NCBI RefSeq assembly: GCF_046105845.1
Contig: NZ_CP151004.1
Source of the DNA: Escherichia coli
Lineage (GTDB): Bacteria > Pseudomonadota > Gammaproteobacteria > Enterobacterales > Enterobacteriaceae
Reading direction: 5' to 3' (one strand)
Length of the DNA stretch: 64,000 nucleotides
Shown: one piece after another, positions 51,554 through 57,500 of the stretch
How the letters are laid out: every line of letters starts with the position of its first letter
How positions within the stretch are numbered: position 1 is the stretch's first letter
Translations under genes and position numbers: made by a program
Notes under the pieces: generated by a model
Seen by the model: only the letters and a program-made list of their open reading frames with translations
Databases searched by the model: none
Told to the model about the DNA's origin: nothing

Positions 51554-52564
51554 ATGAAGGCTGCAGTTGTTACGAAGGATCATCATGTTGACGTTACGGA
51601 TAAAACACTGCGCTCACTGAAACATGGCGAAGCCCTGCTGAAAATGGAGTGTTGTGGTGTATGTCATACCGATCTTCATGTTAAGAATGGCGATTTTGGT
51701 GACAAAACCGGCGTAATTCTGGGCCATGAAGGCATCGGTGTGGTGGCAGAAGTTGGCCCAGGTGTCACCTCATTAAAACCAGGCGATCGTGCCAGCGTGG
51801 CGTGGTTTTACGAAGGATGCGGTCATTGCGAATACTGTAACAGTGGTAACGAAACGCTCTGCCGTTCAGTTAAAAATGCCGGATACAGCGTTGATGGCGG
51901 GATGGCGGAAGAGTGCATCGTGGTCGCTGATTACGCGGTAAAAGTGCCAGATGGTCTGGACTCGGCGGCGGCCAGCAGCATTACCTGTGCGGGGGTCACC
52001 ACCTACAAAGCCGTTAAGCTGTCAAAAATTCGTCCAGGGCAGTGGATTGCTATCTACGGTCTTGGCGGTCTGGGTAACCTCGCCCTGCAATACGCGAAGA
52101 ATGTCTTTAACGCCAAAGTGATCGCCATTGATGTCAATGATGAGCAGTTAAAACTGGCAACCGAAATGGGCGCTGATTTAGCGATTAACTCACGCACTGA
52201 AGACGCCGCCAAAATTGTGCAGGAAAAAACCGGTGGCGCTCACGCCGCGGTGGTGACAGCAGTAGCTAAAGCTGCGTTTAACTCGGCGGTTGATGCTGTA
52301 CGAGCAGGCGGTCGTGTTGTGGCTGTCGGTCTGCCGCCGGAGTCAATGAGCCTGGACATCCCACGCCTTGTGCTGGATGGTATTGAAGTGGTCGGTTCGC
52401 TGGTCGGCACGCGCCAGGATCTAACCGAAGCCTTCCAGTTTGCCGCCGAAGGCAAAGTGGTGCCGAAAGTCGCCCTGCGTCCGTTAGCGGACATCAACAC
52501 CATCTTTACTGAGATGGAAGAAGGCAAAATCCGTGGCCGTATGGTGATTGATTTCCGCCGCTAA
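51554..52564 (+). CDS. adhP: Zn-dependent alcohol dehydrogenase (propanol-preferring)
   Basis: 336-aa product [15 protein letters not shown]…; Zn ligand motifs ([15 protein letters not shown]); RBS AAGGAGG. Confidence 0.95.
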
Positions 52565-52680
52565 GAGGCCTTTGCTGCGACTGCCATGTTCGGGTCGCAG
52601 CATCGCACACTCTCCAACATGAAATGGCTAAATGGATTATTGTTGCGTAGGAAGGAACGCTACTGAGAGTAAAGACACTA

Positions 52681-52965
52681 ATGAAAATGGCCAATCATCC
52701 CCGCCCGGGGGACATTATTCAGGAATCACTGGACGAACTTAATGTCAGCCTGCGCGAGTTTGCCAGAGCAATGGAAATTGCGCCCTCAACGGCAAGCCGA
52801 TTGCTGACCGGAAAAGCAGCTTTGACACCAGAAATGGCGATTAAACTTTCCGTGGTGATCGGCAGTTCGCCGCAAATGTGGCTGAATCTGCAAAACGCCT
52901 GGAGTCTGGCAGAGGCAGAAAAAACGGTGGATGTGTCGCGATTACGCCGTCTGGTTACGCAATAA
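52681..52965 (+). CDS. yddM: HigA-like (Xre-family HTH) antitoxin-type DNA-binding protein, solitary
   Basis: 94-aa ORF with HTH (…[40 protein letters not shown]…); position between adhP and fdnI matches K-12 yddM. Confidence 0.8.
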
Positions 52966-52997
52966 AAAAAATGGCGCTTCTTAAAGCGCCATTTTCA
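52965..52997. terminator. Bidirectional Rho-independent terminator between yddM (+) and fdnI (-)
   Basis: AAAAAAATGGCGCTT-CTTA-AAGCGCCATTTT: hairpin flanked by A tract upstream and T tract downstream. Confidence 0.8.
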
Positions 52998-53016
52998 GCT
53001 TAAAGTTCAAAAGAGA

Positions 53017-53670
53017 TTATATCCCTTCTTCACTCTCTTTTTTCGCTTCTGCCTTCTCGATTTCACGATACCAGCGCGGATGGTGTTTCTTCGCCCAGCG
53101 ACGGCTCACCTTTCCTTCGATCATCCCTTTAATCGATCCTTTCACCCAGAATGCCATATACATATGGATCAGGATGGCGTGGATCAGGATGATACCCGCA
53201 GCCGCGTGGATCAGCAGGCTATAACGGACAACCTGTATCGGGAAGTACTGCGCAAAGTACGGACGCCAGATAATCACCCCGGTCACCAGCAGCACGAAAA
53301 TCATGCTCATGATCGACCAGAACATCATCTTTTGCCCGGCGTTGTACTTACCGACATCCGCCACTTTGTGCTCATTGCCTTTTAATACTTCGACAATGTT
53401 CAACAGCCACGGAATATCTTTCTTATCCGGGATGTTGTGATGCACAAAACGCACAAACATAAACATCAGCGCGACGAAAATCGCAATGCCGAAGAACGGG
53501 TGCAAAATGCGCCCCATCTGCGGCGTACCGAAGGTTTGCGTCAGCCATTGCAGCGTCGGGAAGAAGAACGAAATCCCGGACAGCGCCACCAGGAAGAAGC
53601 AAATCACCACGGTCCAGTGACAGGCGCGATCAATAAATTTGGTGCGCACAATCATTTTCGACTTACTCAT
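53017..53670 (-). CDS. fdnI: Formate dehydrogenase-N gamma subunit (cytochrome b556)
   Basis: 217-aa from [28 protein letters not shown]…; the ORF-track entry (to 53712) carries a non-native N-terminal extension overlapping fdnH. Confidence 0.9.
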
Positions 53671-54559: not shown

Positions 54560-57500
54560 TTACGCCTTCTCGATGTTTACTAAGAACGCTTTATATTCCG
54601 GCGTTTGCGAGTTTGCATCACCGACATTAGGCGTCAGAGTGTTAGCGATGTAACCTTTACGCGCGACACCCTCAAAGCCCCAGTGGATTGGAATACCCAC
54701 CGTTTCAACCTGCTGACCGTTTACATTCAGCGGCTTCAGACGGCGCGTTACCACAGCCACCGCGCGGATAAAACCACGCTTGCTGGAGACAGTGACACGA
54801 TCGCCATTATTAATGCCTTTCGCCGCCGCCAGCGTTTCGCTGATTTCCACAAACTGTTCCGGCTGAGCAATTGCGTTGAGCAACGCGTGCTTGGTCCAGG
54901 TGTGGAAGTGCTCGGTCAGACGATAGGTCGTACCCACATACGGGAACTGCTCTTTTTTACCCATCCGCAGCGCGTCTTGTTCATACAGACGAACCACCGG
55001 GTTAGACACCACGTTCGGATGCAGCGGGTTAGTGCCCAGCGGCGTTTCAATCGGCTCGTAGTGTTCCGGGAACGGACCTTCCGCCATTTTGTTGATGGCA
55101 AACAGGCGTCCCATCCCTTCCGGCTGCATGATAAACGGTCCGGTTAGTGTACCTGGCGCGGCATTGCCGAAGTCCGGAATATCGTTACCCGTCCACTTGC
55201 TGCCGTTCCACTGGATCAGCATCCGTTTCGGATCCCACGGTTTACCGTTGATATCCGCCGAAGCACGGTTGTACAGCACGCGACGGTTGAGCGGCCACGC
55301 CCAGGCCCATCCCAGCGTATTCCCCAGACCGGACGGGTCGGAGTTATCGCGGTTAGCCATCTGGTTGCCCTGCTCTGTCCAGCTACCAGTGTAGATCCAG
55401 CAAGAAGATGCGGTTGTACCGTCATCACGCAGATGCGCAAAGCTACTCAGCAACTGACCTTTCTTCGCAATCAGCACGCCATTAGCATCATAGAGATCTT
55501 CCAGCGCATAGCCGTTGTTCTCTTTAGCTACTTCGTCAGATTGCGGTTCGTGCGGCTGCTTGTAGTTCCAGCTCATCTTCATCAGCGGTTCTACGCCTTT
55601 GCCACCTTCGGCCTGGTACAACTCGCGCAGATGATGGTAGATACCCGCCAGAATTTCGCCGTCGTTACGCGCTTCGCCCGGCGCGTCCTGACCTTTCCAG
55701 TGCCACTGCAACCAGCGACCGGAGTTAGCGATAGAACCATCTTCTTCAGCAAAGCAGGTCGAAGGCAGACGGAATACTTCAGTCTGAATAGACGCCGGAT
55801 CGACATCGTTCGACTCGCCGTGGTTCTGCCAGAAGGTTGAGGTTTCAGTCACCAGCGGATCGATAACCACCATGTACTTCAGTTTGCTCAGGCAGCTCAC
55901 CACTTTGTTTTTGTCCGGGAAGGACGCAACCGGGTTAAAGCCCTGGCAGAAATAACCGGTGACTTTGCCTTCGTCCATCATGTTGAAATACTTGATGACG
56001 TCGTAGGTCTGGTCCCACTTCGGCAGCCAGTCGTAGCCCCAGTTGTTTTCTTTCTGCGCGGCATCGCCATAGAAAGATTTCATCAGGCTAACGAAGAACT
56101 TCGGATAGTTGCTCCAGTAGTTCACCTGATCAGCCAGCGTCGCTTTCGGCGTATTCGCTTCCAGATACGACTGCAAATCAACCTGTTTTTCTGACGGCAG
56201 CGTCAGATAACCCGGCAGGCTGGTTGAGAGCAGACCTAAGTCGGTCAGCCCCTGAATGTTGGAGTGACCACGCAATGCGTTCACGCCGCCACCGGCCATA
56301 CCCATGTTACCGAGCAGTAACTGGATCATCGCCATAGTACGGATGTTCTGCGCACCCACGGTGTGCTGCGTCCAGCCCAGCGCGTAAAGGAAGGTGGTTG
56401 TGCGATCCGGTGCGCTGGTGGAGGCCAGCACTTCACACACTTTCAGGAAGTCGGCTTTTGGCGTACCACAGATGTTTTCTACTACGTCCGGCGTGTAGCG
56501 GGAAACGTGCTCTTTCAGCAAGTTCCACACACAGCGCGGATGAGTCAGTGTTTCATCGCGTTTCGCATAGCCGTTTTCATCGAACTGATAGTTCCAGGAC
56601 GATTTATCGTATTGACGTTTTTCAGCGTCGTAGCCGCTGAACAGACCGTCTTCGAAAGCAAAATCATCACGCACCAGCAGACTGGCGTTGGTGTAATGCT
56701 TAACGTATTCGGCGTTGATTTTGTTGTTTTCGATCAGGTAGCGCAAAACGCCAGACAGGAACGTAATGTCCGTACCGGAACGAATAGGTGCGTAAATATC
56801 CGCTACAGAAGCGGTACGCGTAAAACGGGGATCGACAACGATCAAGGTTGCATCGTTGTTGTTTTTCGCTTCCATCGCCCAGCGGAAACCGACGGGATGC
56901 GCTTCAGCAGCGTTACCACCCATCACCATTACGACGTTAGCGTTTTTGATATCCACCCAGTGGTTGGTCATCGCACCGCGACCAAATGTTGGAGCAAGAC
57001 TTGCTACCGTTGGTCCGTGTCAGACGCGCGCCTGGTTGTCTACCGCCAGCATCCCGAGGGAGCGGGCAAATTTTTGAGTCAGCATCCCGGTTTCGTTGCT
57101 GGCACCGGAGGCACACAGCATACCGGTAGAAAGCCAACGGTTTACCGTTACGCCCTGCTCGTTCTTTTCAATAAAGTTAGCGTCACGGTCAGCTTTCATC
57201 AGCTTGGCAATACGGGAGAATGCTTCATCCCAGCTAATGCGCTGCCATTTATCAGAACCTGGCGCACGATATTCCGGGTAGCGCAGACGGTTTTCGCTGT
57301 TGACGTAATCCAGCAAACCGGCCCCTTTCGGGCACAGCGCACCACGGCTTACCGGATGATCCGGGTCACCTTCAATGTGATAAATCGCTTCTCTGGCGTT
57401 TTTCGCGCCATCACCCAGGCTATACATCAATAGCCCGCAACCTACGGAACAGTATGTGCAGGTGTTACGGATCTCTTTCGCGCGTAATAATTTATAGTTT

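Follow-up and report, generated by a model that had tools for sequence, protein, structure and literature searches.

The window analysed here, a 64-kb stretch of Escherichia coli DNA, carries the gene order maeA, adhP, yddM, followed by the convergent genes fdnI, fdnH and fdnG. The alcohol dehydrogenase gene adhP (51554–52564, plus strand, from the list of open reading frames) is the upstream neighbour of yddM; its product of 336 amino acids is 99–100% identical to the annotated AdhP of the loci L001–L006, and its stop codon forms the left edge of the intergenic spacer. The yddM gene itself (52681–52965, plus strand) encodes an Xre-type HTH protein of 94 amino acids, identified by profile and structure matches as an orphan member of the HigA antitoxin family. 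The spacer between both genes spans 116 bp (52565–52680), as stated in the original prediction. A hairpin with a 10-bp stem and a 10-nt loop lies 3′ of adhP (52573–52602, plus strand; folding energy –20.8 kcal/mol, z = –2.1), followed by a 38-nt segment (52603–52640, plus strand), which according to our alignments is specific to alleles lacking a toxin gene, a putative YddM operator, TGTTGC-GTAGGAA-GGAACG (52641–52659), recognised by pattern match and alignment, and the 22-nt 5′ leader of yddM (52659–52680, plus strand). Inside the operator lies the surviving copy of an 8-bp direct repeat, GAAGGAAC (52651–52658), which became apparent in the alignment with the K-12-like loci L003 and L004. A short ORF of 15 codons plus stop (52619–52666, plus strand), which we regard as a chance ORF, has its ATG in the 38-nt segment and draws its codons 8–14 from operator DNA.

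On the other side, a bidirectional terminator hairpin (52967–52996; –16.2 kcal/mol, z = –3.2, from a terminator scan) is shared by yddM and the convergent fdnI (53017–53670, minus strand, from the list of open reading frames), a conserved downstream neighbour encoding the gamma subunit of formate dehydrogenase-N. An Rfam scan of 52300–53200 returned only sub-threshold sRNA matches, all of them on this hairpin and reflecting the hairpin alone. The length of the yddM-fdnI spacer varies between strains, from 51 bp in the window (52966–53016) to 228 bp in L004 (2192–2419) and 406 bp in the K-12-like L003 (2192–2597), the extra DNA consisting of one or two tandem units of ~178 bp that include a terminator hairpin copy as well as REP-like palindromes. 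In two strains (H1 and H2), an IS200 family element is inserted in this region. Further downstream, the fdnG ORF (54560–56971, minus strand) is listed with only 803 amino acids, which is expected and no defect, as an in-frame TGA encodes selenocysteine in the alpha subunit of formate dehydrogenase-N.

The classification of yddM as a gene of the Xre/HigA type, as originally proposed, proved correct. YddM matches the NCBIfam equivalog TIGR02607 ("antidote_HigA") with 93.7 bits at a cut-off of 47.7, covering 80 of the 81 profile positions, as well as Pfam HTH_3 with 39.1 bits (cut-off 23), and it is 100% identical over 94/94 residues to the PDB entries 2ICP/2ICT, "antitoxin HigA", i.e., the structure of YddM from strain CFT073 (PMC3968373). 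The claim that a toxin partner is missing was likewise confirmed: no toxin gene lies between the end of adhP at 52564 and that of the minus-strand fdnI at 53017, and tblastn searches with the cognate toxin and 23 of its orthologues against the whole 64 kb, proposed originally for the spacer in all frames, gave no toxin-like similarity there and a lowest E-value of 0.14 over the entire window. An adjacent, translationally coupled HigB-type toxin gene upstream of the antitoxin gene is found in L002, L007–L029 and NRG857c and is absent here; the window consequently harbours the antitoxin alone, and not the toxin and antitoxin in one operon that characterise a complete type II HigB-HigA system. 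We conclude that most E. coli have lost the toxin gene of an old chromosomal HigB-HigA pair, of which yddM, the antitoxin gene, survives.

The complete pair is still found at this position in other strains. A megablast search with 52300–53100 against 5426 complete E. coli genomes located the locus in several length classes, and with it the yddM gene, in 5413 of them. In some strains, a RelE/ParE-family toxin is annotated by PGAP between adhP and yddM; in L002 (strain SCAID URN1-2021), e.g., the toxin WP_000605675.1 of 92 amino acids is encoded first (1950–2228) and yddM second (2228–2512), with the toxin stop overlapping the yddM start by one base. Strain NRG857c has the same arrangement (adhP – toxin – yddM – fdnI). 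Altogether, a gene for this HigB-type toxin lies directly 5′ of yddM in 1331/5426 E. coli genomes, including the type strain ATCC 11775, UM146 and ST131, a count which, like the others given here, stems from complete RefSeq genomes with clinical lineages (e.g., ST131) over-represented and is not a population frequency. The encoded toxin matches Pfam PF05015 (HigB-like toxin) with 63 bits and the Rts1 HigB of Proteus vulgaris (4MCT_B) with E = 1.2e-31; it retains the catalytic His54, whose exchange to alanine (H54A) inactivates Rts1 HigB (PMC12266136), and the C-terminal EDYH.

Beyond E. coli, a YddM scan of one genome per GTDB species yielded 41 loci, with the toxin at the identical 279-bp offset before the yddM orthologues, mostly adjoining fdnI. 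Intact pairs were found in E. albertii, three other Escherichia representatives and about 12 Citrobacter species, as well as in Cedecea, Buttiauxella, Pluralibacter, Enterobacter, Chimaeribacter and Erwinia, and in Escherichia, Citrobacter, Pluralibacter and Enterobacter the pair is followed by fdnI. Since the toxin occupies the same offset across these outgroup species, the ancestor had the intact pair and the toxin-less state is derived; a recent insertion of the toxin gene is contradicted by the outgroups. The comparison with genomes having an intact locus, suggested at the outset, has hereby substantiated the idea of a decayed toxin-antitoxin pair, with intact orthologous pairs at exactly the same locus in E. 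coli, E. albertii, Citrobacter and further genera.

Complete removal of the toxin gene is not the only route by which the pair has been broken. In 545/5426 genomes, including ST131, an identical 1-bp deletion (CGCCACC-ACTCGC, counted with a 54-nt probe) frameshifts the toxin gene, as in L001 (1950–2227, NZ_CP095137); these amount to 41% of the toxin-bearing genomes, and yddM is functionally orphaned in them by a different route. A further deletion is present in the O157:H7 strain TR01 (L006:1102–1246), in which the 3′-terminal 47 bp of the toxin gene are fused directly to yddM. The TR01 allele is a mosaic of intact-type DNA beside the adhP hairpin, a K-12-type copy of the operator O1 described below and the toxin 3′ end, and its spacer, at 145 nt, is as long as the K-12 one but differs from it in the left and right thirds. 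Partial toxin matches of this kind occur in 2 genomes only, i.e., the allele is rare. Independent decay or loss of the toxin, with the yddM orthologue kept, has also occurred outside of Escherichia (L010, L016, L030, L031 and L033): in Citrobacter sp. FP75 27 codons remain, in C. portucalensis A60 the gene is frameshifted, in Xenorhabdus lircayensis and X. khoisanae it is fragmentary and in Chimaeribacter californicus it is absent. The locus is hence a clear and well-sampled case of a common pattern, in which a chromosomal toxin-antitoxin pair repeatedly loses the toxin, here by whole-gene deletion, frameshift or the alternative deletion of TR01, and the antitoxin persists under purifying selection.

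In order to interpret the spacer, we compared in one alignment 19 alleles with a toxin gene, drawn from about ten genera, and two without. Just 5′ of the toxin start, these 21 alleles share a conserved array of two palindromes, TGTTGC-N7-GGAACA (O1) and TGTTCC-N7-GGAACA (O2), separated by 10 nt. All four half-sites are invariant or nearly so, in contrast to the freely varying flanks and inner 7-nt spacers. The TGTTSC-N7-GGAACA palindromes are best viewed as putative operators bound by YddM. The 10-nt segment between them ends in a –10-like hexamer, which reads GATAGT in E. coli, GATAAT in C. gillenii, TATACT in Chimaeribacter and TATGAT in Erwinia, and a conserved TTGCG is located 16 nt 5′ of this hexamer. 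As consensus scans found no sigma-70 promoter in any allele scanned (window, K-12-like and intact), the promoter assignment is weak, and reading TTGCG and GATAGT as –35 and –10 elements rests on their position and cross-species conservation. The alignment shows the 116-bp spacer of the window to be the remainder of the control region of the operon, and the toxin gene of the intact alleles would sit at or beside the present yddM leader (52659–52680).

Most toxin-less E. coli keep both operators, as in the K-12-like alleles L003 and L004 with their 145-bp spacer. The spacer of the window differs from these by a deletion of 29 bp between two GAAGGAAC direct repeats, which make up the right-hand parts of the two operators. 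Lost with it were the right half-site of O1, the 10-nt inter-operator spacer including GATAGT and the left half-site of O2, and the left half-site of O1 was joined to the right half-site of O2 in the hybrid palindrome at 52641–52659. The pattern TGTTSC-N7-GGAAC occurs nowhere else in the 64 kb, with 0.08 matches expected. A junction-specific 46-nt probe detected the deletion allele in 182/5426 genomes; NZ_CP042899 is one strain of this window type. Another variant was noticed in L005 (NZ_CP075665, STEC2018-553), where O1 (1835–1853) reads TGTTCCTTCCTACGCAACA, the exact reverse complement of the K-12-type O1 TGTTGCGTAGGAAGGAACA of L003, so that 19 bp are inverted across the palindrome; subtracting the other allele counts leaves roughly 1,000 of the 5426 genomes as expected carriers of this L005-type allele.

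To the left of the operators, the two types of allele diverge as well. In toxin-bearing alleles, the adhP hairpin is followed by CUGUUUUU (L002:1773–1815) and resembles a terminator, and in all toxin-less alleles, including the window (52573–52610), it is followed by AUCGCACAC, without a U-tract. Judging from this allele-specific sequence 3′ of the hairpin, the loss of the toxin coincides with the loss of the U-tract of the adhP terminator, and read-through from adhP could plausibly supply yddM mRNA here. The adjoining 38-nt segment has no significant similarity to the intact upstream region or the toxin gene on either strand (shuffle p = 0.35 and 0.73, respectively), and a 43-nt probe found it in 3015/5426 genomes, as a single copy. 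That it arose by inverted duplication of the upstream region of intact alleles was considered and rejected (p = 0.35, single-copy in the genomes). Likewise, a MAFFT alignment suggested an exact deletion joining two ATGAA microhomologies, one at each start codon of the pair; we did not retain this as established, since the 22 nt preceding yddM resemble the toxin 5′ leader or 3′ end no better than shuffled sequences do (p = 0.66–0.8). With these 22 nt and the 38 nt 5′ of O1 matching nothing in the intact alleles, the end points of the toxin deletion are not placeable. Within the leader, a MazF cleavage site has been reported in K-12 at an ACA 6 nt 5′ of the yddM AUG (PMC5001579); this ACA motif at –6 (52675–52680) is kept in the window, and cleavage as in K-12 would yield a near-leaderless yddM mRNA.

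Taken together, these data can be arranged into a history which we consider the best explanation as a whole, with a probability of roughly 85%. The starting point would be an ancestral chromosomal operon of the higB-higA type between adhP and fdnI, with the toxin first and its stop overlapping the antitoxin start by one base, and with a control region in which O1 and O2, each of the form TGTTSC-N7-GGAACA, flanked the –10-like hexamer. The lineage of the window would then have lost the 279-bp toxin gene, and the further deletion of 29 bp between the GAAGGAAC repeats would have fused O1 and O2 into one palindrome and removed the –10-like element; both losses are seen directly in the alleles compared. 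YddM was most likely retained as a dimeric HTH repressor, which could act on the remaining palindrome and thereby regulate its own gene, and which possibly has a few other chromosomal targets, both by the paradigm of Rts1 HigA and the ChIP-exo and CRISPRi reports from K-12. Transcription of yddM in this allele would probably start from a weak residual promoter or arise by read-through from adhP, and the short ORF would have come about by chance.

What speaks for a lasting role of YddM is its conservation. No residue differs between the YddM proteins of the window, five other toxin-less alleles or strains, six toxin-bearing E. coli and E. albertii, and the canonical protein is found on at least 1000 contigs. 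All variable sites of yddM are synonymous, 22/22 among 12 E. coli and E. albertii alleles and 8/8 among five toxin-less ones; although the latter is a small sample, its probability under neutrality is ~0.3^8, about 1e-4 or less, given that a quarter to a third of random changes are synonymous. The gene is under purifying selection, and because the protein is the same with and without the toxin and varies at synonymous sites only, YddM is probably kept as a DNA-binding repressor. Moreover, the operator half-sites survive in every toxin-less allele despite heavily remodelled surroundings, including substituted inner spacers, a replaced upstream segment, the 19-bp inversion of O1 in the L005-type and the 29-bp deletion of the window.

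Purifying selection without a cognate toxin could also mean that the orphan YddM is kept to neutralise related HigB toxins from plasmids or elsewhere, i.e., for anti-addiction or cross-talk and not as a regulator. HigB-type toxins are indeed common on plasmids of Escherichia, Salmonella and Providencia, with 447 matching plasmid records. However, identity to the cognate toxin does not exceed 56.5% among the plasmid-encoded toxins, a value reached by higB of a Providencia plasmid (tblastn), with E. coli plasmid toxins at roughly 50% also among them, and the identity to YddM is at most 43% for the enterobacterial plasmid antitoxins and 39.5% for the homologous Rts1 HigA (E = 1.3e-18). Type II toxin-antitoxin pairs so diverged are usually insulated from one another, which counts against this role, and we therefore regard it as unlikely. 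Cross-protection by YddM against other HigB toxins is possible but unsupported, with our toxin search spanning 64 kb of the genome.

The second alternative holds that yddM of toxin-less strains is a functionless relic heading for pseudogenisation. In favour of this, a W74amber allele (TGG>TAG, with a product of 73 amino acids; L051–L053:1501–1722) is present in 35/5426 genomes, on a K-12-like toxin-less background (54-nt probe), from which it follows that yddM is dispensable in at least some lineages. In the protein collection, this allele was seen on 487 contigs. In addition, the window allele lacks one operator and the –10-like element, and K-12 deletion mutants made in the Keio collection (PMC12457515) or by lambda-red (PMC6237786) are viable. 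A gene in decay would, however, hardly show zero amino-acid changes next to 22 synonymous ones over 12 deeply sampled alleles, nor be present in all but 13 of the genomes with the half-sites preserved amid remodelled DNA, and phenotypes have been reported for K-12: the Keio mutant is hypersusceptible to epetraborole, a result obtained without complementation (PMC12457515), and yddM shows genetic interactions with stress regulators (PMC9283627). We hold a mere relic to be even less probable than a role in anti-addiction, and retention as a repressor remains the preferred reading.

Published work on K-12 treats YddM as a minor transcription factor. A binding peak of the RpoD holoenzyme has been assigned to yddM (PMC3946193), YddM was taken through ChIP-exo and motif search (PMC6237786), and CRISPRi of yddM altered expression in a manner compatible with putative binding sites (bioRxiv 10.64898/2025.12.20.695731). 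For this otherwise uncharacterised regulator, the proposed operator TGTTSC-N7-GGAACA is of practical use as a concrete candidate site, and the alleles with one, two or inverted operators are ready-made natural variants for studying it. As a tentative extension, and one we hold to be rather doubtful, YddM might have been domesticated after toxin loss and, in some three quarters of the sequenced E. coli, be maintained by selection as a transcription factor in its own right, the polymorphism of the control region (mostly two operators, the inverted O1 of the L005-type, or the single hybrid without –10-like element of the 182-genome lineage) then reflecting adaptive tuning of yddM expression and not neutral decay.

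The short ORF in front of yddM was originally described as extending from an ATG at 52619 to a TGA at 52664–52666, 15 codons in length, which is accurate, and its frame opens even earlier, at an ATG at 52586, to give 26 amino acids. Such a frame requires no special explanation: a forward ATG ORF of at least 15 codons occurs in 22% of mononucleotide shuffles of the spacer, and in 36% if both strands are counted. Its possible role as a leader had been raised from the beginning and would mean a functional leader peptide or upstream ORF controlling the translation or transcription of yddM. The ORF is on the same strand and ends 14 nt before the yddM ATG, and the upstream segment carrying its own ATG is present in the above-mentioned 3015 genomes. 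Neither the start, nor a ribosome-binding site, nor the peptide is conserved across alleles, however. No Shine-Dalgarno sequence precedes the ATG (upstream bases CACACTCTCCAAC); the frame yields 14 amino acids with another C-terminus in K-12-type alleles, the ATG is replaced by ATT in the L005-type allele, and the 21-allele alignment contains no counterpart in intact alleles or other genera. The exact 15-codon form is possible only with the 29-bp deletion and hence confined to its 182 genomes. A leader function is accordingly very improbable.

The other suggestion, that this ORF or another frame of the spacer is the remnant of a decayed HigB/RelE toxin, had the position in its favour, as the site just 5′ of the antitoxin gene is where the toxin gene sits in the HigB/HigA family. 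A profile HMM built from 24 toxin orthologues nevertheless gave no more than –0.5 bits in all six translated frames of the window, K-12 and L005 spacers, compared to 21 bits for the TR01 spacer, which served as positive control with 15 toxin codons truly kept, and a Pfam scan of the 26-aa ORF matched 0 families. The ORF starts 5′ of the operator, in the 38-nt segment dissimilar to the toxin gene (p = 0.73), and runs across the operator and the 29-bp deletion junction, whereas the toxin ORF of the intact alleles lies downstream of the operator array. This reading is already effectively refuted and deserves hardly any credence; of the original prediction, the orphaning of yddM by decay of a HigB/HigA-type pair stands, and the toxin remnant does not. 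The short ORF is a chance reading frame over control DNA; it is not a relic of the toxin, nor is it a conserved leader peptide.

The orphan status of yddM as such is already known, having been published in 2020 (PMC7232551), with the structure solved (2ICP/2ICT) and the gene named by PGAP. Bustamante and Vidal described the pair as TA20 (ParE-2/HigA-2) of the adherent-invasive strain AIEC NRG857c, common to UPEC CFT073, and found that HS and K-12 encode the antitoxin only (PMC7232551). The TA20 coordinates in NRG857c correspond exactly to the adhP-toxin-yddM-fdnI locus, and the window has the same chromosomal position and an identical YddM protein (WP_000781370.1), but is devoid of the toxin gene and of one of the two operators, the latter loss being undescribed in that study (PMC7232551). 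The case is therefore an ordinary one, which matters little beyond a tidy annotation, and the population-scale allele counts, the outgroup evidence for an ancestral pair, the proposed two-operator architecture and the one-operator deletion allele added here are refinements.

The archetype of the family, HigB-HigA of the Proteus vulgaris plasmid Rts1, shares with the yddM system the toxin-first gene order and two palindromic operators 5′ of the toxin gene. In the Rts1 hig promoter, two operators of 21 bp overlap the –35 and –10 elements, and HigA alone represses ~211-fold, or 67–117-fold with either operator alone (PMC12266136). Unlike Rts1, the yddM system is chromosomal, its operator half-sites differ and its operators are spaced by 29 bp from centre to centre, whereas the contacts at –30/–24 and –8/–2 imply ~22 bp for Rts1; the window, moreover, has no toxin and one operator only. 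A second orphan of the HigA type in E. coli K-12 is YbaQ, an Xre-type HTH homologue of YddM (PDB 2EBY, E = 5.6e-9) at another locus and a different protein of 113 amino acids, for which K-12 and HS likewise carry the antitoxin only and the toxin ParE-1 is intact in NRG857c (PMC7232551). The reverse distribution is found for YgjN-YgjM, the chromosomal HigB-HigA pair of K-12 at the fadH-rlmG locus, which is complete in K-12 and HS and reduced to higA in NRG857c and CFT073 (PMC7232551). This pair shares the family name and an HTH antitoxin with yddM, and its organisation and regulation reportedly differ from those of the Rts1-type pair (PMC12266136).
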